Below the pieces are notes generated by a model that made no database searches, had not been told where the DNA came from, and worked only from the letters and a program-made list of their open reading frames with translations. DNA of 64,000 bases from Acidimicrobiales bacterium (GTDB lineage: Bacteria; Actinomycetota; Acidimicrobiia; Acidimicrobiales; GCA-2861595), in contig JBKJNA010000027.1 in NCBI GenBank assembly GCA_046596195.1, forward strand, positions 913 through 64,912, in the 5' to 3' direction. The position numbers were made by a program, and so were the translations under genes. Of this stretch, positions 7,440 through 52,080 are shown piece by piece (positions within the stretch are counted from its first letter, which is position 1; each line of letters starts with the position of its first letter).

Positions 7440-7919
7440 ATGGAGGCCGCCCGGCCGGCTATCGAGGCCGACGTGCCCCGGCTGGCCGACCTTTGCCGGA
7501 TGGCCCTCGCCGAGTTGGGGGCCCGGGAGCGGGGCGGGGCGGTGTTCGTGGCGCGCGAGGCGCGGGCCGAACCGGTCGATACCGGGTTGGCGGCCGCGGT
7601 GGCCGACCCCGACGTGGTCGTGATCGCCGGCATGCTCGACGACGTGGTGCTCGGCTATGCCACCGGCCGGGTGGAGGGCCTGCGGGACGGGACCTCGCTC
7701 GGCATCATCGACGAGTTGTTCGTCGAACCGGACGCCCGGGCCATCGGGGTGGGCGAGGCGATGATGAACCAACTGCTCGAGTGGTTCCGGCAGCGGACGT
7801 GCATCGGCGTCGACTCGACGGCCCTGCCCGGGGCGCGCGAGACCAAGAACTTCTTCGAAGAATCCGGCTTTACGGCCCGCCTGCTGGTGATGCACCACCG
7901 GATGAGCCCCCCGCCGTGA
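7440..7919 (+). CDS. GNAT family N-acetyltransferase
   Basis: Contains [20 protein letters not shown] (acetyl-CoA binding Q/RxxGxG/A motif); 159 aa. Confidence 0.8.
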
Positions 7920-7989
7920 CCGGCCCGGGAGGACGGTCCATCAACAGCTCGCTGGTGCAACGTCCCGAAGGGATGGCGCGCCAGTGACC
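7916..7989 (+). repeat. MIRU-like 68-bp interspersed repeat, copy A
   Basis: GTGACCGGCCCGGGAGGACGGTCC...CTGGTGCAACGTCCCGAAGGGATGGCGCGCCA|GTGACC, about 85% identical to the units at 29879-30016. It exactly fills the GNAT-NUDIX gap. Confidence 0.85.
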
Positions 7990-16210: not shown

Positions 16211-17047
16211 ATGCGCCGGCTCACGATGTTCCTCACCCTCCTCGCAGCGACCGCGTCGTTCGCGGTGGCCGCTCCCGTCCCCGCACACGCGGCGGTGCTC
16301 AGCGCCACGCTGGTTCCCACGCCCACTGGCCTCGGGTACTGGCTGGCCAACGCCGATGGCGGGGTCTTCGCCTACGGCGACGCCCCGTTCCTCGGATCGG
16401 CCGCCGATCTCCGCCTCAACGGCCCGGTGGTCGGGATGGCCCGCACGCCGACCGGGCAGGGCTACTGGCTGGCCACGTCGGGAGGCGGCGTCTTCGCCTA
16501 CGGCGACGCCAACTTCGTGGGATCGGTCGCGTCCATCCAGGTTTCGCAGCCCATCGTCGACATCGTGGCCACCCCCAAGGGCGACGGCTACTGGCTGGTG
16601 TCGGCTGACGGCGGCGTGATCCCGTTCGGCAAGGCCACGTTCCAGGGGTCGCTGTCGACCACCGGCATCAAGCCGACCAAGGCGGTCGTGGGCATGGCGG
16701 CGACGCCGAGCGGGAATGGATACTGGCTGGTGGGGGGCGACGGTGGCGTCTACGCCTACGGCGACGCACGCTTCGTGGGATCGACCGGCGCCCTCCGCCT
16801 GAACCGGCCCGTGGTCGGCATGGCCCGCACGCCGAGCGGCGCCGGCTACTGGCTGGTGGCGTCCGACGGGGGCGTCTTCGCCTTCGGCGACGCCCGTTTC
16901 GCCGGCTCCACCGGGGCGATCCGGCTGAACCAGCCGGTCCTGCGTATGGCGCCCACGCCCTCGGGCGCCGGCTACCTGCTGGTGGCCTCGGACGGCGGCG
17001 TCTTCGCCTTCGGCGACGCCCGCTTCGTGGGGTCCCCCGCCGCCTGA
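16211..17047 (+). CDS. Secreted repeat protein with six ~42-aa GYWLV..DGGVFAFGDA.F.GS blades (putative beta-propeller)
   Basis: Signal peptide, then 6 tandem repeats. AGGAGG sits 7 nt upstream of the ATG. Confidence 0.75.
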   Translation: MRRLTMFLTLLAATASFAVAAPVPAHAAVLSATLVPTPTGLGYWLANADGGVFAYGDAPFLGSAADLRLNGPVVGMARTPTGQGYWLATSGGGVFAYGDANFVGSVASIQVSQPIVDIVATPKGDGYWLVSADGGVIPFGKATFQGSLSTTGIKPTKAVVGMAATPSGNGYWLVGGDGGVYAYGDARFVGSTGALRLNRPVVGMARTPSGAGYWLVASDGGVFAFGDARFAGSTGAIRLNQPVLRMAPTPSGAGYLLVASDGGVFAFGDARFVGSPAA

Positions 17048-22427: not shown

Positions 22428-23618
22428 GTGGTAGGCCATTCGTCCATGGACTGCCCGTTGCGCTTCGGCGTCTTCCTCGCACCCTTCCACGCCGTGGGCC
22501 AGAACCCCACCCTGGCCCTCCAGCGCGACCTCGACCTGCTCGAGCACCTCGACAGGCTGGGCTACGACGAGGCATGGGTGGGCGAGCACCACTCGGCCGG
22601 TTGGGAGCTGATCGCGTCGCCCGAGGTGTTCCTGGCCGCCGCCGCCGGCCGCACCAGCCGCATCTCCCTCGGCACCGGCGTCAGCTCGCTCCCGTACCAC
22701 CACCCCTTTCTGCTGGCCGACCGCATGGTCCTGCTCGACCACCTCACCCGGGGTCGGGTGAAGTTCGGCGTGGGTCCCGGCGCCCTGCCGTCGGACGCCT
22801 TCATGCTCGGCATCGCCCCCGAGCGCCAGCGGGAGATGATGGAGGAGTCGCTGGAGGCCATCCTCGCCCTGCTCACCAGCGACGAGCCGGTGAGCCGCAC
22901 GACCGACTGGTTCACCCTGCGCGACGCCCGGCTCCAGCTCCGTCCCTACCAGCAGCCGTGCTTCGAGGTGGCGGTGGCGGCCCAGATCTCACCCGCAGGC
23001 CCCCGAGCGGCGGGCCGCTTCGGCGCCGGCCTGCTGTCCATCGGCGCCACCAGCCTGGGCGGCTTCGACGCCCTCGGCTCGCACTGGCAGGTGGCCGAGG
23101 AACGGGCCGCCAGGTTCGGCCAGACCATGGACCGCAGCCGGTGGCGCCTGGTCGGCCCGATGCACGTGGCCGAGACCGAGGCACAGGCCCGGGCCGACGT
23201 GGAGCACGGGCTGGCCGACTGGGTCCGCTACTTCCGCGAGGTCGCCGCCCTCCAGCTGGCCCCCTCCACCGACGATGCCGGCGAGCTGGTCGACGCCATG
23301 AACGCCAGTGGCTTCGCCGTCATCGGCACACCGGACATGGCGGCCGCCCAGATCGAGCGCCTGGCCGAGCGCTCCGGCGGCTTCGGCGCCTACCTGGTCA
23401 TGGCGCAGGAGTGGGCCGACCCGACCGCCACCCGCCGCTCCTACGAGCTCATCGCCCAAGAGGTGTTCCCCCGCTTCCAGGGCACGGCCGCACGCGCCGT
23501 CGCCTCGCGGGACTGGGCGGCCGAGCACCGGCCCGAATTCATCGGCGCCGCCGGCGCGGCGGTGATGAAGGCGGTCCAGGACCACCACGCCGAGCACGAC
23601 CCGCTTTCGAGTAAATAG
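22428..23618 (+). CDS. LLM-class (luciferase-like) flavin-dependent oxidoreductase
   Basis: Contains RFGVFLAPFH...LGYDEAWVGEHHS, the typical LLM N-terminus; 396 aa. Confidence 0.75.
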   Translation: MVGHSSMDCPLRFGVFLAPFHAVGQNPTLALQRDLDLLEHLDRLGYDEAWVGEHHSAGWELIASPEVFLAAAAGRTSRISLGTGVSSLPYHHPFLLADRMVLLDHLTRGRVKFGVGPGALPSDAFMLGIAPERQREMMEESLEAILALLTSDEPVSRTTDWFTLRDARLQLRPYQQPCFEVAVAAQISPAGPRAAGRFGAGLLSIGATSLGGFDALGSHWQVAEERAARFGQTMDRSRWRLVGPMHVAETEAQARADVEHGLADWVRYFREVAALQLAPSTDDAGELVDAMNASGFAVIGTPDMAAAQIERLAERSGGFGAYLVMAQEWADPTATRRSYELIAQEVFPRFQGTAARAVASRDWAAEHRPEFIGAAGAAVMKAVQDHHAEHDPLSSK

Positions 23619-23646
23619 CCACCGGAATTCGGTGGCTATTTACTCG
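23608..23646. terminator. Palindromic hairpin element, copy 2 (bidirectional terminator-like)
   Basis: CGAGTAAATAGCCACCG-gaatt-CGGTGGCTATTTACTCG is a perfect 17-bp stem. The TAG stops of both convergent genes (23616-23618 and 23636-23638) lie in its arms. Confidence 0.7.
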
Positions 23647-25228
23647 GGAGTGGGGGTCGGGGGCGGGCGTCCCAGGTCGGGATGAGGTGGCGGGCGGCGC
23701 GGGCCTCGTCGACCCGGCCGACCGGCGTGGACCGGGGGGCGGCGGACGCGCCTTCGGGGTCGGCGGCGATGCGCTCGAGGGCCTGGGCCAGGGCCTCCAT
23801 GGTCTGGGGGCTCTCGGTCTCGGTGGGCTCGATCATGAGCGCCTCCTCCACGATGAGGGGAAAGTAGACGGTTGGGGCGTGGAAGCCCTCCTCCAGGAGG
23901 CGCTTGGCCACGTCGACCGCCTTGAGGCCGGCGGCGCGCTTGAGCGACGCCGCCGATGCCACGAACTCGTGCATGCCGGGGCGGTCGTAGGGGATGTCGT
24001 AGGTACCCCGCAGCCGGTGGCGCAGCCAGTTGGCGTTGAGCACCGCCGCCTCGGCCACCTTGCGCAGGCCGTCGCCGCCGTTGGCCAGGATGTACGAGTA
24101 CGCCCGGGCGAGGGCGAGGGCGTTGCCGTGCCACGAGTGGACCCGCCCGATCGACCTCGCCGGCGTCACCCACCCCCACGCACCGTCGTCGCCCATCACC
24201 GGCACCGGGCCGGGCAGGTAGGGCGCCAGCCGTTCGGAGACGGCAACAGGGCCGGCGCCGGGCCCGCCGCCGCCATGGGGCACGGCGAAGGTCTTGTGCA
24301 GGTTCATGTGCACGATGTCGAAGCCCATGTCGCCCGGCCGGGTGACGCCGAGGATGGCGTTGAGGTTGGCGCCGTCGTAGTACAGGAGACCGCCCACCTC
24401 GTGGACGGCGGCCGCGATCTCGGCGATATCCTCCTCGAACAGGCCGAGAGTGTTGGGGTTGGTGAGCATGATCCCCGCCACGTCGTCGTCGAGGCGGTCG
24501 CGCAGGGCCGCCACGTCGACGCAACCTCTGGCGTCTGACGGCACGGTAACGGTGGTGTAGCCGCCGAGGGTGACCGATGCCGGGTTGGTGCCGTGGGCCG
24601 AGTCGGGGATGATCACCTTGGTGCGCTGGCGCCCCTGGTCACGGTGCCAGGCCCGCATGAGCAGCAGCCCGGTGAGCTCGCCCGCCGCGCCCGCCGGCGG
24701 CTGGAGCGTGGCGGCATGCATGCCCGTGACGGCGCACAGGCGGGCGGCCAGATCGGCCAGCACCTCCATCCAGCCCTGGGTGAGGTTGGCCGGGGCCGAC
24801 GGATGGGCGCCGGCCAGGCCGGCCAGCGACGCCGCGTCGTCGCACAGCTTGGGGTTGTACTTCATGGTGCACGACCCGAGGGGGTAGGCCCCGAGGTCGA
24901 CCGAGTACTGCCGGGCGCTCAGCCGGGTGACGTGGCCCACCAGGTCGCGCTCGGACACCTCGGGCAGCGCCAGCGGCTCCGGTCGGAGGTGACCGGCCGG
25001 CACCAGCTCCTCCGCCGTCCACTCGGGGACGCCCGTGGTACGGAACGACCACGCCGACCGTCCCGGGGACGAAAGCTCGAAGACGGTGGGCTCCTCGGCC
25101 CGCCCCATGATCGGGGCGCTCAGGGCCCGCCCGCCGGGGGCGCCCCCCGTCTGTGCCTTCTCCCCGGCCGGGGCCCCATCCCCGGCCTCCTCGCCGAGCG
25201 GGGTCCCCATCCCCGCCGGCGCCGTCAT
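23636..25228 (-). CDS. gcvPB: Glycine dehydrogenase (aminomethyl-transferring) subunit 2
   Basis: Contains FHAPTVYFP, HMNLHKTF (PLP lysine) and DSAHGTNPAS. The ATG overlaps the gcvPA stop as ATGA. Confidence 0.9.
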   Translation of the reverse strand: MTAPAGMGTPLGEEAGDGAPAGEKAQTGGAPGGRALSAPIMGRAEEPTVFELSSPGRSAWSFRTTGVPEWTAEELVPAGHLRPEPLALPEVSERDLVGHVTRLSARQYSVDLGAYPLGSCTMKYNPKLCDDAASLAGLAGAHPSAPANLTQGWMEVLADLAARLCAVTGMHAATLQPPAGAAGELTGLLLMRAWHRDQGRQRTKVIIPDSAHGTNPASVTLGGYTTVTVPSDARGCVDVAALRDRLDDDVAGIMLTNPNTLGLFEEDIAEIAAAVHEVGGLLYYDGANLNAILGVTRPGDMGFDIVHMNLHKTFAVPHGGGGPGAGPVAVSERLAPYLPGPVPVMGDDGAWGWVTPARSIGRVHSWHGNALALARAYSYILANGGDGLRKVAEAAVLNANWLRHRLRGTYDIPYDRPGMHEFVASAASLKRAAGLKAVDVAKRLLEEGFHAPTVYFPLIVEEALMIEPTETESPQTMEALAQALERIAADPEGASAAPRSTPVGRVDEARAARHLIPTWDARPRPPLPSK

Positions 25229-28646: not shown

Positions 28647-28671
28647 CCACTGTGACCCGGTGCCACAGTGG
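28647..28671. promoter_or_regulatory. Perfect dyad CCACTGTG-N9-CACAGTGG upstream of the MerR gene
   Basis: 8-bp arms at 28647-28654 and 28664-28671, 39-63 nt upstream of the MerR ATG. The right arm overlaps the first 17-bp repeat unit. Confidence 0.5.
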
Positions 28672-28733
28672 CTGAATTACGACAGTGGCTGAATTACGAC
28701 AGTGGCTGAATTACAACAGTGGCGGAATTACAC
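28666..28733. repeat. 17-bp tandem repeat x4 (CAGTGGCTGAATTACGA)
   Basis: Units at 28666, 28683, 28700 and 28717. The first two are identical, the third has 1 change and the fourth has 3 changes. The sequence is AT-rich relative to the genome. Confidence 0.9.
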
Positions 28734-28797: not shown

Positions 28798-29313
28798 TCA
28801 GGAGCTGAAGTCCTCGGGGCGGATGCCCTCGATGAACTGGCGGAACTGCGAGACGAGCTCGTCGGGAGCGGTCTCGTCGTCGTCGTCCTCGGCGTCGAGC
28901 ACCACGCCGGCGGCGTCGAGGAGGTCGTCCTCAGCGAAGATGGGCGTGCCCGTGCGGGCGGCCAGGGCGATGGCGTCGGACGGTCGGGCCGAAATGACCT
29001 GGGACTCGCCGCCCTGGCGCAGGTGCAGCTCGGCGTAGTAGGTGCCGCTGCGTCCGTCCTCGCCCATCCGAAGCTCGGTGACGACGACCCGCTCCAGCGT
29101 GGCGCCCAGGGCGACGAGGAGGTCCCGCATGAGGTCGTGGGTCATGGGCCGCGGCGGCACGACCTTCTGCAGGGCGAACGCGATGGCGGTGGCCTCGGGC
29201 GCGCCGATGAAGATGGGCAGCGTTCGCCGGGCGCCCTCGACCTCCTGGAGTAACACGACCGGATTGTTGGTGGGCAGCTCAACGCGTACTGCGGCGAGGT
29301 GCATCTCCACCAT
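28798..29313 (-). CDS. Bifunctional nuclease family protein (DUF151; Rv1829-like)
   Basis: Contains NNPVVLLQE...RTLPIFIGAPEATAIAFAL...RPMTHDL...ARPSDAIALA and an acidic tail. Confidence 0.8.
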   Translation of the reverse strand: MVEMHLAAVRVELPTNNPVVLLQEVEGARRTLPIFIGAPEATAIAFALQKVVPPRPMTHDLMRDLLVALGATLERVVVTELRMGEDGRSGTYYAELHLRQGGESQVISARPSDAIALAARTGTPIFAEDDLLDAAGVVLDAEDDDDETAPDELVSQFRQFIEGIRPEDFSS

Positions 29314-29322
29314 GAGCCAACC

Positions 29323-29880
29323 CTACCGTGCGAAGAACTGCTCCACGTGCGCATCGGGATCGGCCCGCAGCGCCGCCAGGTCGCCCGCCGCCACGAGTTC
29401 CAGGTTCCGGTAGCGCTCGGCGAAATCGAGGCCGTAGCCGACCACGAAGTCGTCGCCGATGGTGAACCCGACGAAGCGCACCGGCGTGGGCACGATGCGC
29501 CGGGTGGCCTTGTCGAGCAACGCGCAGGCCTCGAGGCTGCGCGGGCCGCGCCGGCCCAGCTGGCCGAGCAGGTAGGTGAGGGTGAGCCCGGTGTCGACGA
29601 TGTCCTCGACCAGCACCACGTCGCGCCCGGCGATGTCGATGTCGAGGTCCTTCACGAGGCGGACCCGGCCGGTGTCGGGCGCGTACGACGAGATGGCCAG
29701 GAAGTCCACCTCGGGGACGATCGACAGCGCCCGCACCAGGTCGGCCAGGAACGGGACGCTGCCCTTGAGCACGGCGACGAGCACCACGCCGTCGCCGTAG
29801 ACAGCCGAGATCTCGTCCGCCAACCGGGCCACGCCGGCGCGCAGCTCGTGGACCGGGATCAGGACCCGGGCGTCGGTCAT
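29323..29880 (-). CDS. hpt: Hypoxanthine phosphoribosyltransferase
   Basis: PRPP motif VVLVEDIVDTGLTL, with KGS..F.ADL and YGLDF. The in-frame ATG at 29880 gives 185 aa; the ORF extension to 29979 is repeat-derived. Confidence 0.9.
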   Translation of the reverse strand: MTDARVLIPVHELRAGVARLADEISAVYGDGVVLVAVLKGSVPFLADLVRALSIVPEVDFLAISSYAPDTGRVRLVKDLDIDIAGRDVVLVEDIVDTGLTLTYLLGQLGRRGPRSLEACALLDKATRRIVPTPVRFVGFTIGDDFVVGYGLDFAERYRNLELVAAGDLAALRADPDAHVEQFFAR

Positions 29881-30033
29881 GACCGGCCCGGGAGGACGGT
29901 CCCATGAACAACTCGCTGGTGCGACATCACGAAGGGATGGTGCACCAGTGACCGGCCCGGGAGGACGGTCCATGAGCAACTCAGTGGTGCGCCATGCCGA
30001 AGGGCATGGTGCACCAGTGACCGGTCCGGCCCT
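29879..30033 (+). repeat. MIRU-like repeat array: two 69-bp units plus a 17-bp partial unit
   Basis: Units at 29879-29947 and 29948-30016, with partial GTGACCGGTCCGGCCC at 30017-30033. The orientation is the same as copy A, but the flanking genes are on the opposite strand. Confidence 0.85.
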
Positions 30034-30090
30034 TCTGGTCGGTGAAACAGTGCGAAGTTCACACCGATTCGCCGACCGGAACGCGGCGGC

Positions 30091-31155
30091 TCACCCGCCC
30101 GAGAGGCGGCGCAGCGACTGGCGCAACACGGCGGCCCGCAGGCTCTGCCCCAGGCGGGTGAGCTCTTCGAGGGACTCCACCGCCTGACGGCGGGCCTCGG
30201 GGTTGCGCTGCTTGAGCAGCGGCGTGACGATCTGCTCGAACAGGCCGGCCTCGCGTTCGGCCGAGTTCTTGTAGATCCGCAGGTGACGGCCCTCAATGCC
30301 GAAGCTGGCGAAGCCCACGGCCAGGTTGGCCACGACCAGGGCCTCCTCGTCGTAGTACACGGTGCCGGCCACGGGCCGGCCGGCGATGAACCCGTACCTC
30401 TCCAGCTCCCGAAGGCGGTCGTAGGGCAGGCCGGTGGCCGACGCCAGTTCCTCGAGGGAGAGGCTCACGCCGCTCATGCCGGCCGACAGGCTGGTGGCAT
30501 GGGCGGCGGGGGGCGGCGGCCTGGTGGGCGGTGTCAGCGGTTGAGACGGCTCGACCGCCGGCGGGGGGGCTGCAGCAGGGGCGGGGCCAGGGGCCACTAC
30601 GGGTGGGGCGGCCATCGCCACCTCGGCCGCCGGGACAGTGGGCTTGTGGCCGGCGGGGGCCGGCGGAGCGGCAACCGGAGCCGCCGGAGCGGGCTGGGCG
30701 GCAACCGGTGGCGGTGAAGCGAGCGGGCCGGGGGCGGCGGCCGGCGACGCGGGCGCCGCGGCAACCGGGGCGGGAGGAGGCGGGGCGGTGGCGGCAACCG
30801 GCCCGGGGCCCGGTGGCGCCACCGGAGGTGCGTCGACCACGGCGGTGGCGAGACTGTCCCTCCCGGCAGCGGGCACCGGCCCGCCGTCGTCGGCGCCGGC
30901 GTCGTCGCCCGTGCTCACACCGAGGCGGCCCTTGATCACCTTCAGGGGCAGGAAGTGCTCGCGCTGCTGGCGAAGGATCCACCGCAGCCGGTCGACGTCG
31001 GGCTCGTAGAACTTCCGGTACCCCGAGGCCGTTCGCTCGGGGTCGAGCAGGCCCTGGCTCTCCAGAAAGCGGATCTTCGAGATGGTGACGTCGGGGAACT
31101 CGTCCTTGAGGAGGGACAGCACCTCACCGATGGACAGGTACGCCCGGTCCCCCAC
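30091..31155 (-). CDS. MerR family regulator with a long Pro/Ala-rich linker (Rv1828 / FtsR-like)
   Basis: Contains LSIGEVLSLLKDEFPDVTISKIRFLESQGLL...SGYRKFYEPDVDRLRWIL, and a C-terminal second MerR-like dimerisation region. Confidence 0.8.
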   Translation of the reverse strand: MGDRAYLSIGEVLSLLKDEFPDVTISKIRFLESQGLLDPERTASGYRKFYEPDVDRLRWILRQQREHFLPLKVIKGRLGVSTGDDAGADDGGPVPAAGRDSLATAVVDAPPVAPPGPGPVAATAPPPPAPVAAAPASPAAAPGPLASPPPVAAQPAPAAPVAAPPAPAGHKPTVPAAEVAMAAPPVVAPGPAPAAAPPPAVEPSQPLTPPTRPPPPAAHATSLSAGMSGVSLSLEELASATGLPYDRLRELERYGFIAGRPVAGTVYYDEEALVVANLAVGFASFGIEGRHLRIYKNSAEREAGLFEQIVTPLLKQRNPEARRQAVESLEELTRLGQSLRAAVLRQSLRRLSGG

Positions 31156-36444: not shown

Positions 36445-38328
36445 TTGTCTGGACTCGCCACGAAAGGCTTCCTCCTCATGCGCATGACGCCTCCTCCCGG
36501 ACGGCCGGGGCCCGAGCGGAACAAGAGCCGCAACACGCGTTTGCAGATGGTCGGCATCGGGGTCCTGTTCGCGCTGGTCCTGGCCCTGCTGTTCAATCTC
36601 CCCGGTGGCTCAACCTCCAAGGAGGACACGCCCGAGGTCACGCTGTCAGGCGCCGTGCAGGCCATCAAGGAGGGAAAGGTCGCCCGCCTCCACCTGAACG
36701 ACGGCTCCCGGCGGGCCACGCTGCTCCTGTCCAACGGCACCGAGGTCCAGACGGCCTACCCCGTGGGTTCGGGCCCGGAACTCAGCACCACCGCCATCGA
36801 GGCCGACGTCAAGGTTACCGCGGCGCCGAACAAAGCCAGCTCCCCGTGGATGAGCCTGCTTTTCACCCTCCTCCCCGTCGCCCTCCTCATCGCCTTCTTC
36901 GTCTTCTTCATGGGCCCCAAGATGGGCATGAACGTGGGCAAGATGCACAAGTCGCGCCGGGCACCCATCGATGTGCCCGAGACCCGCTTCAGCGACGTGG
37001 CCGGATCCGACGAGGCCGTCTCCGAACTGGCCGAGGTCGTCGAGTTCCTCAACACCCCCGAGCGCTTCATCAACGCCGGAGCGCGCATGCCCAACGGTGT
37101 GCTGCTGGTCGGCCCCCCCGGCACCGGCAAGACCCTTCTCGCCCGGGCCGTGGCCGGCGAGGCGGGCGTGCCCTTCTTCGCCCTGTCGGGCTCCGACTTC
37201 GTGGAGACCTTCGTCGGCGTCGGCGCCTCCCGCGTGCGCCAGGTGTTCACTGCCGCCCGCAAGCTCGGCAGCGCCATCATCTTCATCGACGAGATCGACG
37301 CCGTGGGCAAGGCCCGATCGTCCCAGTCGAGCGGGAGCGGCAACGAGGAGCGGGAGAACACGCTCAACCAGTTGCTGGTGGAGATGGACGGGTTCAGCGA
37401 GTCCGGCATCATCGTGCTCGCCGCCACCAACCGGGCCGACGTGCTCGACGCCGCCCTCACCCGGCCGGGCCGCTTCGACCGGCACATCACCGTCCCCGCC
37501 CCCGACCGGGTGGGCCGCACCAAGATCCTGGAGCTCTACGCCCGCAACCGCCGCTTCTCGCGTGACGTCGACTTCGTCTCGCTGGCCCGGCGCACGCCCG
37601 GTCTCACCGGCGCCGACCTGTCGTCCCTGATGAACGAGGCCGCCCTCGAGGCGGCCCGCCACGGCTCCGGCGAGATCACCAACGCCCACCTCCAGGCCGC
37701 CCTGTCCACCTCGTACATGGGCCGGGCCCGCACGTCGGCCGTCGTCACCGAGCGCGACCGACGCATCACCGCCTGGCACGAGGCCGGCCACGCCGTGGCG
37801 GCCATGCTGCTGCCCCACGCCGACGACCCCGTCTCCGTCACCATTGTCCCCCGGGGCGTGGCCGGCGGCGTCACCTGGATGGGCGGCAACGACAACTCGT
37901 TCCTCACCCGCTCCGAGGCCGAGGCCCGCCTGGTGGTCGCCATGGCCGGCCGGGCCGCCGAGGAGTACCACCTCGACGGCGACTACACCCAGGGGGCGGC
38001 CAGCGACTTCGCCTCGGCCACCGCCCTCGCCACGTCGATGGTCACCGAGTTCGGCATGAGCCCCCTCGGCCCCACCACCCGGTCCAGCTACGGCCACATC
38101 GGCGGCGCCCAGGCCGACCGGGTCGGCGAGGCGGTCGATACCCTCCTCGACCAGGCCATCACCGACGCCCGGAACCTGGTCGCCGACAACTTGCAGCTGC
38201 TCGAAGCCCTCGTTCGCGAGCTCCTGGTAGAGGAGACGGTGAGTGGCCAGGAGCTCTCGGTCCTGGCCGACTGCCTAGGCGACCGCCCGGCCCCGGTTTA
38301 CGCCACGGAGCTGCACCAGCTCCCCTGA
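36445..38328 (+). CDS. ftsH: ATP-dependent zinc metalloprotease FtsH
   Basis: Contains GPPGTGKTLLA, IIFIDEIDA, the SRH region and the Zn site HEAGHAV. TTG start at 36445; alternative ATG at 36478. Confidence 0.9.
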   Translation: MSGLATKGFLLMRMTPPPGRPGPERNKSRNTRLQMVGIGVLFALVLALLFNLPGGSTSKEDTPEVTLSGAVQAIKEGKVARLHLNDGSRRATLLLSNGTEVQTAYPVGSGPELSTTAIEADVKVTAAPNKASSPWMSLLFTLLPVALLIAFFVFFMGPKMGMNVGKMHKSRRAPIDVPETRFSDVAGSDEAVSELAEVVEFLNTPERFINAGARMPNGVLLVGPPGTGKTLLARAVAGEAGVPFFALSGSDFVETFVGVGASRVRQVFTAARKLGSAIIFIDEIDAVGKARSSQSSGSGNEERENTLNQLLVEMDGFSESGIIVLAATNRADVLDAALTRPGRFDRHITVPAPDRVGRTKILELYARNRRFSRDVDFVSLARRTPGLTGADLSSLMNEAALEAARHGSGEITNAHLQAALSTSYMGRARTSAVVTERDRRITAWHEAGHAVAAMLLPHADDPVSVTIVPRGVAGGVTWMGGNDNSFLTRSEAEARLVVAMAGRAAEEYHLDGDYTQGAASDFASATALATSMVTEFGMSPLGPTTRSSYGHIGGAQADRVGEAVDTLLDQAITDARNLVADNLQLLEALVRELLVEETVSGQELSVLADCLGDRPAPVYATELHQLP

Positions 38329-38337
38329 TCCCTGTTT

Positions 38338-38376
38338 CGAGGAAATAGCCACCGGAATCCGGTGGCTATTTCCTCG
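38338..38376. terminator. Palindromic hairpin element, copy 3
   Basis: CGAGGAAATAGCCACCGG-aat-CCGGTGGCTATTTCCTCG is a perfect 18-bp stem between convergent ftsH and trpA. Confidence 0.7.
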
Positions 38377-38393
38377 GAAGCGCCTGCGGTGGC

Positions 38394-39185
38394 CTAGCCG
38401 GCGTCCAGGGCAGCCCTGAACCCGGCCACCGTCGAACCGATCTGGTCGGGCGAGGCGCCGTCGATCAACCGGCGCATGAGGGCGGAGGCGACGACGACGC
38501 CGTCCGCCTCCGCACACGCCTCCACCGCGTGGGCGGGCGTGGAGATGCCGAAGCCGAGGAGGACGGGCTTGTCGGTGTGGGCCTTGAGGCGCTTGGCCAT
38601 GACGCCGGCCGAAGCGGCCAGACGCTGGCGCTCCCCCGTGATGCCCATGGCGCTCACGCCGTACACGAACCCCTGCGAGCGCTCGCAGATGAGGGCCAGG
38701 CGGTCGTCGGGGGTGACGGGCGCCGCCAGCAGCACTGTCTCGACGCCCTCCGACTCGGCGGCCCGGGCCCACGGGTCGAGCTCCTCCAGCGGGATGTCCG
38801 GCACGATGGCCCCGGACACGCCGTTGCCGGAAAGGGCGTGGGCGAAACGGCGGTGGCCGCCCCGGTAGACGATGTTGTAATAGGTCATCGCCACAAGCGG
38901 CACGCCGGCGTCGACGGCGCCCACGGCGTCGAGGATGGCCGTCGGCGTGGCCCCCAGCTCCAGCGCCTTCTGCGACGCCTCCTGGATGGTGGGGCCGTCC
39001 ATCACCGGGTCCGAGAAGGGGATCCCCACCTCGATGGCGTCGGCCCCCGCCGCCGCCATGGCCTCCAGGACCTCGGTCCACCGGGGCCCGAGCCCGCCGG
39101 TCACATAGGGCACGAGCAGCTTGGCACCGGCCGCCCGCCGCTCGCGCAGGTGGCGCTCCAAGAAGCCCGGCTCGGGCACGCTCAC
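38394..39185 (-). CDS. trpA: Tryptophan synthase alpha chain
   Basis: Contains LVPYVTGG...GADAIEVGIPFSDPVMDGPTIQ. GTG at 39185 is preceded by GGTGGAGG; the rest of ORF 38394..39689 is non-coding read-through. Confidence 0.85.
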   Translation of the reverse strand: MSVPEPGFLERHLRERRAAGAKLLVPYVTGGLGPRWTEVLEAMAAAGADAIEVGIPFSDPVMDGPTIQEASQKALELGATPTAILDAVGAVDAGVPLVAMTYYNIVYRGGHRRFAHALSGNGVSGAIVPDIPLEELDPWARAAESEGVETVLLAAPVTPDDRLALICERSQGFVYGVSAMGITGERQRLAASAGVMAKRLKAHTDKPVLLGFGISTPAHAVEACAEADGVVVASALMRRLIDGASPDQIGSTVAGFRAALDAG

Positions 39186-39194
39186 GCCTCCACC

Positions 39195-39281
39195 CCGGCA
39201 CCGGTCAGCCCGGCACTGATCAGCCCGGCACTGGTCAGCGAGATGGGGGCGAGACGGTCCACGCCGGCTGACCACTGCCCG
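39195..39281. repeat. 15-bp direct repeat x3 plus one inverted copy in the trpB-trpA spacer
   Basis: CCGGCACCGGTCAGC / CCGGCACTGATCAGC / CCGGCACTGGTCAGC at 39195-39239. The inverted GCTGACCACTGCCCG at 39267-39281 matches 13 of 15 positions. Confidence 0.85.
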
Positions 39282-39285
39282 ACCG

Positions 39286-40476
39286 TCATCCGGTGCCCAG
39301 CATGCCCATGACGTGCTCGGCGTCCTTGTCGCCCCGGCCGGACATGGTGATGAGCACGGTGGACCCGGTGGGCAGGGCGTCGGTGCCGGCGGCCCGGATG
39401 ACCCAGGCCACGGCGTGGGCGGGCTCCAGGGCGGGGATGATGCCCTCGGTGGTGGCCAGCAGCTGGAGGGCGGCCAGCACCTCCCCGTCGGCGGCGGGCA
39501 CGTACACGGCACGCCCCACGTCGGCCAGGTGGGCGTGCTCGGGCCCCACGCCCGGGTAGTCGAGGCCGGCCGACACCGAGTGGGCCTCGATGATCTGGCC
39601 GTGCTCGTCCTGGAGCAGCTGGGACAGCGAGCCGTGGACCACACCGGGGATGCCCCGGCCCACGGCCGCCCCGCCGGCCGGCTCCACACCCACCAGGCGG
39701 GCGCCGGTGTCCACGAAGCCGGCGAAGGTGCCCGCCGCGTTGGACCCGCCGCCCACGCACGCCACCACGTAGTCGGGGTCGGCGCCGTCGAGGATGGAGC
39801 GGCACTGCCCGCGTGCCTCGTCGCCGATGACCCGCTGCAGCTCCCGGATCATCCACGGGTACGGGTGCGGGCCGGTGACCGAGCCGAGAAGGTAGTGGGT
39901 GGTCTCCACCGACGAGACCCAGTCCCGGAAAGCCTCGTTGATGGCGTCCTTCAGCGTGCGGCTGCCGGAGCCGACCGGCACCACCTTGGCGCCCAGCAGC
40001 TTCATGCGGAACACGTTGAGGGCCTGGCGCTCCACGTCGACCTCGCCCATGTAGATCACGCACTCGAAACCGAACATGGCGGCGGCGGTGGCGGTGGCCA
40101 CACCGTGCTGGCCGGCGCCGGTCTCGGCCACCACACGCGTCTTGCCCATGCGCCTGGTGAGCAGAGCCTGGCCGATGACGTTGTTGATCTTGTGCGAGCC
40201 GGTGTGGGTGAGGTCCTCCCGCTTGAGCAGCACGCGCACGCCGAGCCGCTCGGACAGGCGCCGGCACTCGCTCACCGGCGTGGGGCGGCCGTTGGCCGCC
40301 AGGATGCCGAGGTACTCGTCGTGGAAGGCGGGGTCGGCCCAGGCGGCCCGGAAGGCGGCCTCGAGCTGCTGGCACGCAGGTACCAGCGCCTCGGGCAGGA
40401 ACCGCCCCCCGAACCTGCCGAAACGACCCTCGGGGGTCGGCTCGCGCATCAGCCCCGCAGTGTCCGTCGACTCCAT
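39286..40476 (-). CDS. trpB: Tryptophan synthase beta chain
   Basis: Contains [15 protein letters not shown] (PLP lysine) and GGGSNAAG; 396 aa. Confidence 0.95.
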
Positions 40477-44174: not shown

Positions 44175-45227
44175 TCAGGGCTTTCGGGTGGTCGTGGTGG
44201 TTACCGGTCTCGTGGTGGGGACGGTCGTGACGGCCGGACCGGTGGTGGTGGTCACCGGTCTGGTGGTGGGGGCGGTGGTGACGGCCGGACGGGTGGTCGT
44301 GGTCACCGGGCTGGTCGTGGGGGTGGTGGAGCCGGGAGGGCGGCTCGTCGTGGCGCCCGGGACAGTCGAGGCGACCGGCGCCGTGGTGACCGGCGTCGGC
44401 GGGTCGGCGCATGCCGGCAACGCCAGCTGGAACTGTTCGGCGCCATTGACGACGAGCCGCAAGGCCTGCACCCCGACGCCCTGGCAGGTCAGCTCCCAGC
44501 GGGCCCGTCCGGTGGCATCGGTCACCGTGGGGTTCGCCAGACCGACGCTCCAGCCCGACCCGCCCGCCAGCTCCACGGTGGCGCCCGCCATGGCCACACC
44601 GTTCACCACCCCGCCCGGGTCGACCGAGCGGTTGCTCAGCTGCAGGACCAGGTTGCTGGTCCCGCCCACGACCGGCGGGTTGGGCGCAATCGCCGGCTGC
44701 GGCGTGGTGCCGAAGTTGCGCTCCAGCTTCAGATCCACCGAATAGGTCTCCGTCGCTCCGACGAAGAAGAAGGCGGGGACGGCGATGGCGATGTCAGGCA
44801 CCCGCCACGCCCGGACCCGGTAGCCGCCGCCGAGCACGTTCTGGGCCGACCAGCTGCCGTCGGGGGCCGAGGCCACGTCGATGCCGGCGACCGACCTGCC
44901 CACCAACCGCTCCACCCGGATCGTTGCGCCGTCCACCGGAGTGCCGTCCGGCCCGACCACCGTGCCCTTGATGGTGCCCTTGCCCGGCCCCACCACCACG
45001 GTGGTCATGGTGGCCCGCCCGGCGGGCACGGCCGGCAGGGCCACCCCGGTGAAGTCCGGCGGGGAGGTGGTGGACGGCCGGGCCTGCGTGCTGGGCGGCG
45101 GCGGCAGCGGGTCGAGAGCGACGTCGCCGCCCGAGCACGCGGCCAGGAGGGCAGCGACCGCCAGTGCGGCCACCACCGACCGCAGCGTGCCACGGGCGCC
45201 GACGGCGGCGCCCGCCGGGCCGAGCAC
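44175..45227 (-). CDS. Lipoprotein with a carboxypeptidase-regulatory-like domain and a Thr/Pro-rich repeat tail
   Basis: Lipobox ALLAACSGG. GTIKGTVVGPDGTPVDGATIRVE is CarboxypepD_reg-like. The C-terminus is (PVTTTTxPAVTTxPTTR)n. Start GTG 45227 lies within the long ORF 44175..46931. Confidence 0.65.
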   Translation of the reverse strand: MLGPAGAAVGARGTLRSVVAALAVAALLAACSGGDVALDPLPPPPSTQARPSTTSPPDFTGVALPAVPAGRATMTTVVVGPGKGTIKGTVVGPDGTPVDGATIRVERLVGRSVAGIDVASAPDGSWSAQNVLGGGYRVRAWRVPDIAIAVPAFFFVGATETYSVDLKLERNFGTTPQPAIAPNPPVVGGTSNLVLQLSNRSVDPGGVVNGVAMAGATVELAGGSGWSVGLANPTVTDATGRARWELTCQGVGVQALRLVVNGAEQFQLALPACADPPTPVTTAPVASTVPGATTSRPPGSTTPTTSPVTTTTRPAVTTAPTTRPVTTTTGPAVTTVPTTRPVTTTTTRKP

Positions 45228-46235: not shown

Positions 46236-46796
46236 ATGAAGTCCGCGCAGCTCACCGGCCGGCTCCTCGTGGCGACGCCCATCCTGGGCGACCCCAACTT
46301 CGACCGCACCGTCGTGCTCCTCCTCGAACACTCCGAGGAGGGGGCGGTCGGCCTCGTGTTGAACCGCCCGAGCAAGACCGAGGTGGCCGAACCGCTGCCT
46401 GAGTGGGACGAGGTGACGGCCGTGCCGTCGGTGATCTTCGTGGGCGGGCCCGTATCGCAGTCGGCGGTCATCGGCCTGGCCCGCTGCGACAGCGGCGCCA
46501 GCTCCGCCGCCGGCTGGCGGGCGGTGGGCGGGGGCATCGCCATCGTCGACCTCACCGACGCCGCCCCGGACGCAGCCGCACCCATCGAGGCGCTCCGCCT
46601 CTTCGCCGGCTACGCCGGCTGGGGCCCGTTCCAGCTGGAGGCGGAGATCGACGCCGGCGCCTGGTGGGTGGTCGACGCCAGCCCCGACGACGCCCTCAGC
46701 CCTGACCCCGAGGGCCTGTGGTCCGCCGTCCTGCGCCGCCAGCGAGGCCGAGTGGCCATCCACGCCTTCTTCCCCGACGACCCCTCGTCCAACTGA
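46236..46796 (+). CDS. YqgE/AlgH family protein (UPF0301)
   Basis: Contains LTGRLLVATPILGDPNFDRTVVLLLEHSEEGAVGLVLNRPS. The ORF opens at 46197; GAGGGAGAA favours a start at 46233 or 46236. Confidence 0.8.
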   Translation: MKSAQLTGRLLVATPILGDPNFDRTVVLLLEHSEEGAVGLVLNRPSKTEVAEPLPEWDEVTAVPSVIFVGGPVSQSAVIGLARCDSGASSAAGWRAVGGGIAIVDLTDAAPDAAAPIEALRLFAGYAGWGPFQLEAEIDAGAWWVVDASPDDALSPDPEGLWSAVLRRQRGRVAIHAFFPDDPSSN

Positions 46797-46800
46797 CCGT

Positions 46801-46847
46801 TCCCGAGTAAATAGCCACCGGATTCCGGTGGCCCTATTTACTCGGGA
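46801..46847. terminator. Palindromic hairpin element, copy 4 (2-nt bulge)
   Basis: TCCCGAGTAAATAGCCACCGG-att-CCGGTGGC(cc)CTATTTACTCGGGA. The trpE TAA stop (46838-46840) lies in the right arm. Confidence 0.7.
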
Positions 46848-49457: not shown

Positions 49458-50180
49458 ATGACGATCGACGAGCTGGCCCGCCGGGCCGGGTGCACCACCC
49501 GCAACGTCCGGAACCACCAGACGGCTGGCCTCCTGCCCCCGCCGGTGATCGACGGACGGGTGGGTCGCTACGACGAGGGCCATCTGGCCCGCCTGCGCCT
49601 CATCGCCCAGCTCCAGGAGCAGGGTTACTCGCTGGCCGGGATCGCGTCGCTGCTGGAGGCCTGGCAGAAGGGTCACAGCCTGGCCGAGGTACTCGGCTTC
49701 GAGCAGGCCCTCACCGCTCCGTGGACCGACGAGGAGCCCGAGGTCGTCTCCCCCGGCTACCTGTTCGAGCTGTTCCCGGAGAGCGCCACCCGCCCGGATC
49801 TCGTCCTGCGGGCCGTGGAGCTCGGCCTCTTCGAGGCGGACGGGCCCGACGTGCGGGTGCTCAGCCCCCGGCTCGTGAAGGCGGGCGCCGAGTTGGTGGC
49901 GGTGGGGGTGCCCCTGGCCGCCACACTGGCGGAGCTGGGCGAGCTGCGCCGGGACCTCGACCGGGTGGCCACCCGGCTCGTGCACCTGTTCGAGGAGCAC
50001 GTCTGGAAGCCCTTCGCCGACGCCGGCATGCCGGCCGACCAACTTCCCCACGTCACCGACGCCCTCCGGCGCATGCGCCCGCTGGCCGCCGCCACCGTCC
50101 AGGCGGTGCTGGCCCGGGCCATGGAGAGCCGCACCGCCGCGTCCACCACCATGGCGGCGGTCCGGGAAGGCATGCGATGA
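49458..50180 (+). CDS. MerR family transcriptional regulator
   Basis: Contains MTIDELARRAGCTTRNVRNHQTAGLLPPP...GRYDEGHLARLRLIAQLQEQGYSLAGI. In-frame ATG at 49458. Confidence 0.8.
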   Translation: MTIDELARRAGCTTRNVRNHQTAGLLPPPVIDGRVGRYDEGHLARLRLIAQLQEQGYSLAGIASLLEAWQKGHSLAEVLGFEQALTAPWTDEEPEVVSPGYLFELFPESATRPDLVLRAVELGLFEADGPDVRVLSPRLVKAGAELVAVGVPLAATLAELGELRRDLDRVATRLVHLFEEHVWKPFADAGMPADQLPHVTDALRRMRPLAAATVQAVLARAMESRTAASTTMAAVREGMR

Positions 50181-50253
50181 CCACCGCAGGAGCAGCAGCA
50201 CCGACAGCACGGCACCGCACGGCCCCGTCGACGCGCAAGGAAGGAAGCACGCC

Positions 50254-52080
50254 ATGATCGCCTTCGCCGGATGGGGCACCGACTGGCCGTTCGTGGCCGC
50301 GCCCTTCGTCTTCTATTTCTTCACCGTCTTCTGGCTGCTCTGCATGGGCGACCACGAGGGCGAGACCAACCCGATCCGCATGTTCTTCCGGCGCATCTCC
50401 ACCGCCATGGAGGACGTCACCGGGTACCCCGGCTGGGCCATGGCCGGCGCCCTGAGCGGCCTGCTGGTTCTGGCCGTGGCCGCTCTCGGCCTCTACTGGG
50501 ACGTGGCGTACCACATCGATTTCGGCCGGGACAACCAGCTGATGACGCCCAGCCACACGATGATCCTGCTGGGCCTCGGCGGCATGGTCTACGCAGCGGT
50601 GATCGCGGTGATCTTCGCCACCAACGACCGCACGCAGGTGGGCTTCGGGTTCGCCGGCATGCGCATCCCGTGGTCGGCCCTCATGCTCGCCGTCCTCGGC
50701 TTCGGCGGCGTGGCCGCCTTCCCACTCGACGAGCTTTGGCACCGGGCCTACGGCGTCGACGTCACCCTGTGGAGCCCCACCCACCTGCAGCTGGTCGCCG
50801 GTGGCGGGCTCGGCCCCATCGCCGTCCTGCTCATGCTCCTCGAAGGCCGCTCCCAGGCGAGCCCTCGGGCCCTCGGCCGCATCATCGAGGCCACCACCGG
50901 TGGCGCCGTCCTCGTGGGCCTGTCGACCTTCCAGGGCGAGTTCGACTTCGGTGTCCCCCAGTTCCAGGCCCTGTACCTGCCCGTCCTGTTCGCCGTCGTC
51001 ATGGGCTTCGGCCTGGTGCTCGTGCGCATGGCCCTCGGCCAGGGCGGCGCCATCACGTCGGTGATCGCGTTCCTCGTCCTGCGCATCTCCCTTGCCCTCC
51101 TGGTGGGCGGCGCCCTCAACCACACCACGCCCCGCTTCCCGCTCTACCTGGTGGGCGCCGTCTGCGTGGAGGTGGTGGCGTACGTGCTCGGCACCGACAA
51201 GACGCTGCGGTTCGCCCTGGTGGCAGGGGCGGCGGCGGGCACAATCGGCCTGGCCGGCGAGATGGCGTTCGTCGACGTCTCCGGGTGGTTCGACGTCGAC
51301 CCGACCGCCATGCTCCTGCCGGCGCTCGTCATCTGCCTGGTGGCGGCGACGGCGGCGGCCGTCCTGGGCGCCGGCCTGGGCAGGGCGTGGCGGCCGTCGG
51401 GGGACGAGTCCTCCACGCCGATGCCGCTCGCCGCTCTCGGCGTCGCGGGCCTGGCCGTCATCGTGGCGCTGGCGCTGCCGCTGCCCCGCAACGTCGGCCA
51501 GGTCGACGCCGTCATCCGGCTGGAGCCGGCCGGCGACCTGGCCAAGGTGGCGGTCGACGTCACGCCGGCCGATGCGGCCGACAACGCCACCGCCTTCGGG
51601 GTCATGTCCTGGCAGGGCGGCGGCCGGGTGTGGGCCGAGCTCGAGAAGGCCGGCCCGGGACACTGGGTCACCACCAAGGCGGTGCCCATCGCCGGGTCGT
51701 GGAAGTCGATGGTGAGCCTCCAGCGGGCCGACGAGGTGATGGCGGCGCCGATCTACCTGCCCGCCGACGCCGAGATCGGCGCCTCCGCCGTGCCCGCCCT
51801 GCCCGAGCGGTCCGCCCCGTTCGTGCGCAACACGGAGATCCTCCTGCGGGAGGCCAAGGACGGGCCCGGCTGGCCGGCGCTCCTCGCCTACGCCGGCGTG
51901 GCCCTCGTGGCGGCCGTGTGGATCGGCCTGTTCGCCTTCACCGGCCGGCGCCTGGCCGGCGCCGAGCCGCCCCCGCCAGCGCCGCCGGCCGACAGGGGCA
52001 GCGACGCCGGGACCGCCTTTGTGCCTGGCGGCAGGCTCGAGCCCGTCGGCGGCCACACCCGCTCCTGGGCCAACTGGTAG
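50254..52080 (+). CDS. Large polytopic membrane protein of unknown function with conserved His motifs and a C-terminal extracytoplasmic domain
   Basis: 608 aa with about 12 TM helices. Motifs are WDVAYHIDFGRD..TPSH and PLDELWHRAYGVDVTLWSPTH. AAGGAAGG lies upstream of the ATG. Confidence 0.6.
   Translation: MIAFAGWGTDWPFVAAPFVFYFFTVFWLLCMGDHEGETNPIRMFFRRISTAMEDVTGYPGWAMAGALSGLLVLAVAALGLYWDVAYHIDFGRDNQLMTPSHTMILLGLGGMVYAAVIAVIFATNDRTQVGFGFAGMRIPWSALMLAVLGFGGVAAFPLDELWHRAYGVDVTLWSPTHLQLVAGGGLGPIAVLLMLLEGRSQASPRALGRIIEATTGGAVLVGLSTFQGEFDFGVPQFQALYLPVLFAVVMGFGLVLVRMALGQGGAITSVIAFLVLRISLALLVGGALNHTTPRFPLYLVGAVCVEVVAYVLGTDKTLRFALVAGAAAGTIGLAGEMAFVDVSGWFDVDPTAMLLPALVICLVAATAAAVLGAGLGRAWRPSGDESSTPMPLAALGVAGLAVIVALALPLPRNVGQVDAVIRLEPAGDLAKVAVDVTPADAADNATAFGVMSWQGGGRVWAELEKAGPGHWVTTKAVPIAGSWKSMVSLQRADEVMAAPIYLPADAEIGASAVPALPERSAPFVRNTEILLREAKDGPGWPALLAYAGVALVAAVWIGLFAFTGRRLAGAEPPPPAPPADRGSDAGTAFVPGGRLEPVGGHTRSWANW

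Follow-up and report, generated by a model that had tools for sequence, protein, structure and literature searches.

Between hpt and the gene for an Rv1828-like MerR regulator, both on the minus strand according to Pfam and the open reading frames (ORFs), the window (the whole stretch of DNA that was analysed, 64,000 nucleotides) contains a tandem array of a short repeat and, next to it, a different hairpin repeat, here called module 2. Beyond hpt lies a BFN gene, and beyond the MerR gene lie FHA and GcvH genes (Pfam). The features of the locus, together with the one further copy of the array's repeat in the window, are listed below.

29323-29880, minus strand: hpt, 185 aa, Pfam Pribosyltran; the true start is the ATG at 29880
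29879-29883, plus strand: putative native target ATGAC, as read by comparing empty with filled sites; shares bases with the hpt start codon (CAT 29878-29880)
29879-29947, plus strand: unit B1, 69 nt, antisense to hpt and the MerR gene, covariance-model (CM) score 68.9 bits; hairpin 1 at 29881-29901, hairpin 2 at 29913-29951
29948-30016, plus strand: unit B2, 69 nt, CM score 83.2 bits; hairpin 1 at 29950-29970, hairpin 2 at 29981-30020
30017-30032, plus strand: tract first described as a partial unit; element-borne terminal GTGAC, then native spacer CGGTCCGGCCC
30033-30083, no strand assigned: module 2, a near-palindromic hairpin repeat TTCTGGTCGG...CCGACCGGAA, unrelated to the unit, directly 3' of the MerR stop codon
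30091-31155, minus strand: Rv1828-like MerR regulator (Pfam), with its stop inside GGGTGAG
7916-7987, plus strand: copy A, the canonical sense copy with a 68-nt period, between plus-strand GNAT and Nudix genes

The initial annotation had described a tandem array in front of hpt, lying between two minus-strand genes and inverted relative to them, and this description is borne out. The array consists of two 69-nt units (29879-30016), and TRF reports it at 29880-30029 with a period of 69, 2.2 copies, 89% matches and a score of 237, as the sole long-period non-coding array in its part of the window. Copy A, which is sense between its plus-strand neighbours, brings the window to three units at two sites and makes the inversion at hpt evident. 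The 69-bp unit length proposed at first holds for B1 and B2 but not for the family, in which the normal unit is 68 nt; B1 and B2 have one 1-nt insertion apiece, and not the same one, the surplus C of B1 lying at 29901-29903 by comparison with the 68-nt consensus and that of B2 within GGGCATGG. The 5' part, (A/G)TGACCGGCCCGGGAGGACGGTCC, is invariant in B1, B2 and copy A. In the variable part B1 and B2 are 78% identical, and each of them is closer to JAHFUS copies from other loci (L027 with 88%, L002 and L010 with 84%) than to the other, so that the array is not a recent local duplication. Directly after B2 the sequence reads GTGACCGGTCCGGCCC. The supposed 17-bp partial unit matches the unit over its first 8 nt only (GTGACCGG), while the rest is native spacer, the tract 30017-30032 aligning with GGTCTCCTGGGACC at the L114 locus, which carries no unit. 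What remains of the intergenic region (30033-30083) is module 2.

The start codon of hpt at CAT 29878-29880, likewise correctly placed at the outset, falls inside a 12-nt palindrome, CGGTCATGACCG (29875-29886), and nearly all close Hpt homologues have 185 aa and start at the same residue. A 218-aa hpt ORF running to 29979 is for that reason regarded as a false extension; an in-frame TGA at about 29985 caps any extension of Hpt at 33 aa, and a Shine-Dalgarno (SD) sequence before the extension is absent. The plus-strand ORF 29879-30187 owes its open frame to unit lengths divisible by three, and it is as much an artefact as the extension, as had been suspected. For annotation in general this means that units of this kind create false ORFs and false N-terminal extensions, hpt being an example. 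The hpt ATG itself has no SD sequence upstream, and the array places an anti-SD-like CCUCCC upstream of the AUG.

Folded as a whole, the array gives -120.8 kcal/mol on the plus strand (z -5.2) and -113.7 kcal/mol on the minus strand (z -4.65) relative to shuffled sequences, and the minus-strand RNA forms three strong hairpins. A scan of 29300-30400 for promoter and terminator consensus returned nothing within the array, and the region 29880-30090 contains no terminator-like site (GC-rich hairpin plus U tract) on either strand, so that the array does not qualify as an intrinsic terminator. Rfam gave no matches at the gathering threshold over the whole window and none at E<=1 in 29700-30200, which argues against a known structured RNA such as a purine riboswitch upstream of hpt.

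The gene order around the array is common to relatives of the window. The order GcvH-FHA-MerR-Hpt-BFN-MerR-orf-GcvT was recovered by tblastn with the window's proteins in L034, L036, L038, L039, L040, L053, L058 and L068, and the order from GcvH to GcvT is also kept in L114, L115, L116 and L123; the unit occurs in none of the contigs sharing it. This argues against a rearrangement linked to the repeat, which the initial annotation had suggested, since relatives carry hpt at the same position without any repeat, and the place of hpt between MerR and BFN is, on these comparisons, ancestral in the lineage. The GGGTGAG at the MerR stop can likewise be read as the remnant of an ancestral GTGA stop/start overlap with hpt. 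It was also correctly noted that hpt does not adjoin ftsH, which lies at 36445-38328; the separation of the two genes is old in the lineage. A CM search of 80 metagenomic hpt loci (372 kb) gave zero copies of the element, which is thus not tied to hpt, and the array is missing at all orthologous hpt loci examined (the 80 metagenome loci, L114-L116 and L123). One further locus, L124 (ENA contig k141_4599364), otherwise matches JAHFUS and has an in-frame TAG in its Rv1828-like MerR gene at about position 2100 (AAGAACTAGGCC), which shortens the called product to 301 aa; the TAG could reflect a pseudogene or a sequencing error.

The distribution of the repeat was followed by scanning a shared 21-mer through one genome per species. 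This gave 33 loci, nearly all of them in Acidimicrobiales MAGs (JAHFUS01 with assembly GCA_023264975.1, JBOGHQ01, DASSMA01 and others). L024 and L030 were discarded as chance matches; the 31 genuine loci and the window's own two sites form the 33 sites analysed here, and since no two sites have flanking sequence in common they represent 33 independent insertions. The alignment (A1) comprises 35 units, and a search with model R1 added only three further diverged copies in 295 kb. Short arrays of 1.3-2 units occur in the window and in L002, L004, L010, L013, L014, L021 and L028, and copy number at the hpt site itself ranges from two units in the window to a footprint only in JAHFUS.

The boundaries of the element are sharply defined with respect to the flanking genes. 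The tetranucleotide at the 5' end is GTGA at 19 of the 33 sites, ATGA at 11, TTGA at one and something else at two, and that at the 3' end is GTGA at 31, ATGA at one and another at one, with C as the next base in 31/33. The 5' TGA ends a long ORF of high GC3 (above 83-90%) at 22 sites, the 3' GTG starts a long high-GC3 ORF at 28, and both junctions hold at 21. The element is sense to the downstream gene at 32 of the 33 sites, the single exception being the hpt array; the upstream gene is divergent at two sites (L004 and L028). Copy A exhibits the typical arrangement, in which the 5' GTGA (7916-7919) merges the GNAT stop (TGA 7917-7919) with the start of a mini-ORF encoding a peptide of 23 residues, and the 3' GTGA (7984-7987) merges the mini-ORF stop with the GTG start of the Nudix gene (7984).

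Unit length follows a reading-frame rule. The normal unit has 68 nt (or 65 or 62), which is always 3n-1, and in such units an ORF of 20-23 codons, the putative relay ORF, runs from the 5' xTG to the 3' TGA. Among the 35 aligned units, 29 have one of these lengths and six have 69 nt (3n), none being 3n+1; the six 69-nt units read in frame into the next unit or gene. In L002, L022, L031 and L014 two separate indels in each jointly restore the phase. Second units of arrays can break the rule, as seen in L002b (70 nt) and in L010b, which has an in-frame stop. The mini-ORF is open in 35/35 units, but the other sense frames are likewise free of stops in 31-33/35, and at such high GC we rejected the absence of stop codons as uninformative about coding. 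Individual sites show variations of the arrangement: in L011 (4890-4961) the unit's ORF forms an in-frame C-terminal extension of the upstream gene, in L027 (4951-5023) the frame of a 69-nt unit continues into the downstream gene, and in L008 (2223-2324) the start of the relay ORF is a GTGA 30 nt before the unit, whose own 5' TGA is mutated to CGA.

The unit contains two hairpins, of which the 3' one (hairpin 2) was tested as a manually specified 17-bp structure against shuffles and slid controls, an RNAalifold consensus having missed its middle part. Over the 35 units 89.7% of the stem cells are paired, compared with 24-48% in the slid controls, and double-sided changes occur in 10 of the 17 pairs (31 cells); none of 500 shuffles reached any of the observed measures. 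The earlier proposal of selection on the structure of the hairpin is upheld by these figures. Its companion claim that the outer stem is kept in all copies is not, since copy A has GCGCCAG (giving a G·U pair) and B2 has GTGGTGC (one mismatch). The inner stem and loop occur as ATCCC-GAA-GGGAT, ATCGC-AAG-GCGAT, ATCGC-GAC-GCGAT and CACCCC-GAA-GGGGTG. Non-Watson-Crick stem cells on the sense strand are G·U in 59 cases and A·C in 10, an excess in favour of a fold formed by the sense transcript. Within the 3' GTGA, each of the four bases takes part in a pair in 29-33 of the 35 units, and the start codon of the downstream gene is therefore predicted to be buried in the stem. Hairpin 1 consists of GACCG, an 11-nt loop with GGGAGGA, and CGGTC. 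The invariance of these 5' 21 nt follows from the 21-mer having been the search key, and a compensatory change is seen in one diverged copy only (L002:1993, GACCG/CGGTC to GGCCG/CGGCC).

Comparison of empty and filled sites gives an indication of the target. The GNAT|Nudix junction is empty in JAHFUS (L117), where the genes have a 4-nt overlap, CGCC ATGAC GCTG, and reads CCGCC GTGAC[CGGCCC...CCAGTGAC]CCTGCCC in the window; in L119 and L121 a 10-nt spacer precedes GTGAC. The MerR|hpt junction is empty in L116, with a GTGA overlap, has module 2 only in L114, and has module 2 and the two antisense units in the window. In the closest relative, JAHFUS L123 (92% nt identity), the same junction holds a 25-nt spacer, GCCACCGCGTTC|TCCCGGGCCGGTC, made up of the left edge of module 2 and, in reverse complement, the 13 nt that follow TG at the start of the unit. 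The CM match at this spacer has a weak score and antisense orientation, and the 13-nt remnant is best read as the deletion footprint of a unit. From the two empty/filled pairs the element appears to insert at (A/G)TGAC, the 5' base (A or G) being in all appearance native and the near-fixed 3' G supplied by the element. The junctions fit equally well with a 4-bp target duplication and with insertion 3' of TGAC without duplication. A blastn comparison of the 33 loci with the window for more orthologous empty sites returned coding-repeat matches only, and L003, which has a similar 3' flank, was rejected as an orthologous hpt locus; its genes differ, and the similarity stems from module 2.

Overall, we consider the array to be a pair of units of an Acidimicrobiales repeat that is ~68 nt long, mobile and intercistronic, MIRU-like in design and present at hpt as a backwards passenger, a reading to which we give a probability of about 0.75. 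According to this reading, the element would insert where the stop and start of two co-directional genes overlap in (A/G)TGAC, namely at the TGAC. The upstream gene would still stop at the native xTGA, which would at the same time turn into the start of a relay ORF of 20-23 codons, while the element would bring a new 3' GTGA at which the relay ORF ends and the downstream gene restarts with its second codon ACN kept, the length of 3n-1 preserving the frame relationship. The RNA hairpin would hide this GTGA, so that the downstream start would be opened only by ribosomes on the relay ORF. Ribosomes that initiate at the native start codon, or do so again once past the upstream stop, would translate the relay ORF and melt the hairpin, and would then terminate at GTGA and reinitiate on the downstream gene; with the hairpin opened in this manner an insertion would be nearly harmless. 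Since the GTGAC at the end of the element is itself a target, more copies could be added head to tail, which would explain the tandem arrays. The sequences show family membership, the bias in orientation, the anatomy of the junctions, the rule of length and phase, covariation and G·U asymmetry in the hairpin, empty sites and the footprint in the sister genome; translation of the relay ORF we infer from the length phase and the junctions, and reinitiation, the chemistry of insertion and neutrality at hpt are inferred as well.

The situation at hpt would be a special case. A plus-strand ATGAC is available there because the start codon lies within the palindrome CGGTCATGACCG, and two divergent units would have come to sit backwards in a spacer that module 2 had already opened. 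The relay design would be inoperable in this orientation, and the array is probably a tolerated passenger that uncouples hpt from the MerR gene; in the sister lineage it is already gone. That B1 and B2 each reached 69 nt (3n) by an insertion of their own could point to a constraint on reading frame over the whole array, something not expected of a passenger.

Other explanations have to be weighed against the same data. The initial annotation had preferred an orientation-independent hairpin element acting at the DNA level, of the REP/REPIN type, such as a protein-binding or recombination site. One antisense copy does exist, shuffled sequences fold much less well than either strand of the array, and mobilisation itself may use single-stranded DNA hairpins. 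However, the strong orientation bias (32/33 sites sense to the downstream gene), the 21 sites bounded exactly by a stop and a start, and the prevalence of G·U over A·C in the sense-strand stem (59 against 10) all speak against it; a reading-frame rule for unit length has no rationale at the DNA level, and the antisense copy was deleted in the sister genome. We regard this explanation as very improbable. It could also be argued that the array has become a functional cis-regulatory leader of hpt (an attenuator, a processing or stability element, or a source of promoters) recruited after MerR and hpt were uncoupled, since it makes up the entire 5' region of hpt, its minus-strand RNA forms three strong hairpins, and an ATG without an SD sequence requires some unusual route of initiation. 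Such a role is nevertheless improbable for an array that is absent at the 80 metagenome loci, L114-L116 and L123, that has no promoter or terminator consensus and no Rfam match even at E<=1, and whose 68-nt unit flanks unrelated genes as well.

That the repeat encodes a micro-peptide, (M/V)TGPGGRS..., or by in-frame reading of the minus strand a real N-terminal extension of Hpt, seems to us scarcely tenable. The mini-ORF is indeed open in all 35 units, but compensatory stem changes freely alter the peptide (HPEGMV, HRNAMV, HRKAMV), and the 69-nt variants shift the frame and replace its whole C-terminal half. As to Hpt, both antisense units became 3n by independent 1-nt insertions and the minus-strand frame is open into hpt; against this stand the 185-aa homologues with their common starting residue, the TGA at about 29985 that leaves 33 aa at most, and the missing SD sequence before the extension.

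The second repeat at this locus, module 2, follows the pattern TTCTGGTCGG..GCGAAgTTC..CCGACCAGAA and was found by blastn also in L003 (1660-1709, minus strand), L001 (3370-3422) and L114 (516-593). In L114 it stands alone at the MerR|hpt junction, where, with direct GTGAGCGA repeats on either side, it measures 74 nt from GTGA to GTGA and contains an open mini-ORF of 25 codons, the same relay design as in the 68-nt unit. At the corresponding junction of L115 (2924-3004, GCA_036262515.1) there is a different insert of 77 nt, again from GTGA to GTGA, with an open mini-ORF of 26 codons, a hairpin of its own (GGTCGCC..GGCGACC) and an SD-like sequence. A strict relay scan of the window and the retrieved loci, for ORFs of 12-45 codons bounded by xTGA at either end and situated between two long coding ORFs, recovered the units, module 2, two spacers in L115 and two in the window, at 50177-50257 (plus strand) and 39182-39289 (minus strand). 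The latter two extend from ATGA to xTGA, with an open relay mini-ORF of 26 codons in the first and 35 in the second; the spacer at 39182-39289 holds a 15-bp tandem repeat of 3.1 copies (39194-39239). These matches give hints that relay ORFs between coupled genes may be common in these genomes.

At least three unrelated inserts (the 68-nt unit, the 74-nt module 2 and the 77-nt insert of L115) thus share one design, from xTGA to xTGA, 3n-1 in length and with an open mini-ORF. It is tempting to speculate, and we do so tentatively and at somewhat less than even odds, that Acidimicrobiales harbour a class of structured mobile elements, "relay-ORF" elements, which has not been described before and has as its target the TGAC of overlapping stop and start codons. 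If so, these elements would either be moved by one shared machinery or have converged repeatedly on termination-reinitiation, the only way of surviving between coupled genes.

The window contains several other repeats. A third dispersed repeat is a perfect palindrome of ~51 nt with an AT-rich core (CGAGTAAATAGCCACCGGAATTCGGTGGCTATTTACTCG), present in four copies in 64 kb (3-53, 23600-23650, 38330-38380 and 46796-46846) with folding energies of -43 to -55 kcal/mol; it may be a bidirectional terminator or a REP-like element. At 28665-28731, between the BFN gene and a small MerR gene, a 17-bp tandem repeat (ACAGTGGCTGAATTACG, 3.9 copies) adjoins an operator-like palindrome, CACTGTGAC..GTCACAGTG. 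The 17-bp repeat is present as a single copy in JAHFUS L123, indicating a lineage-specific expansion of copy number in what is likely a regulatory region. A 126-bp repeat of 5.4 copies in coding sequence (16353-17044) probably represents a protein domain in several copies, since L011 and L027 have similar repeats (70-76% nt identity), and a 51-bp repeat of three copies at 44190-44353 (GGTGGTGGTGGTCACCGG...) is probably also coding.

Several families of short repeats can be compared with the element. The REP/BIME/REPIN, ERIC, NEMIS/Correia, BOX and RUP sequences are similar in being short, dispersed, hairpin-forming, intergenic, sometimes tandem and probably mobilised in trans, but they are not known to follow a frame rule or to be delimited exactly by a stop and a start, and they are generally found in both orientations. 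The ability to work in either orientation, characteristic of REP/REPIN, which are associated with a RAYT transposase, is not what we find here, where a hairpin is present together with a strong orientation bias and a frame rule. Miniature elements derived from IS200/IS605 (PATE-type, with Y1 transposases) have subterminal hairpins at both ends, insert strand-specifically by a fixed tetranucleotide, which would here be TGAC, and carry a related or identical tetranucleotide at their right end. The two hairpins of our unit are unlike each other, however, and a simple 4-bp target duplication explains the junctions equally well. The Rickettsia palindromic elements (RPE) resemble it as palindromic mobile repeats that survive by respecting reading frames, but they lie in frame inside genes and become part of the protein, whereas the Acidimicrobiales element lies between genes and has a separate relay ORF.

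The closest likeness is to the MIRUs of mycobacteria. According to the account of Supply et al. 1997 given in PMC12548453, these are mobile, insert at start codons with little disturbance of expression, and have an ORF coupled to the gene at a spacing of -4 nt. As far as that account goes, MIRUs are units of 40-100 bp dispersed between operon genes and oriented as the genes, with a small ORF inside that overlaps the stop of the gene before it and the start of the gene after it, so that coupling is kept, and they form short tandem arrays with copy numbers varying between genomes. The family described here shares the short dispersed unit, the gene orientation, the overlapping small ORF and the variable tandem arrays; the hpt array itself lacks two of these, being antisense to both neighbours and having no overlapping small ORF. 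MIRU units have lengths of 77 and 53 bp, which likewise are 3n-1. MIRUs are, to our knowledge, described as being without dyad symmetry, whereas the Acidimicrobiales element has a long covarying hairpin over the downstream start and a 5' hairpin with an SD-like GGGAGGA loop. Its hosts are also different, uncultured Acidimicrobiales in another class, which makes the element at most an analogue. With this reservation, it is a new, structured form of MIRU-like element, from outside the mycobacteria.

MIRUs are used worldwide in the typing of M. tuberculosis. Another difference from MIRUs is that the putative target of the Acidimicrobiales element, TGAC, can be read from empty sites; if our reading is correct, a defined target and defined hairpins would make the movement of MIRU-type elements directly testable. 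An independent family in another actinobacterial class with the same "translationally transparent" architecture as the MIRUs suggests that this design may be a general solution for mobile DNA inside operons.
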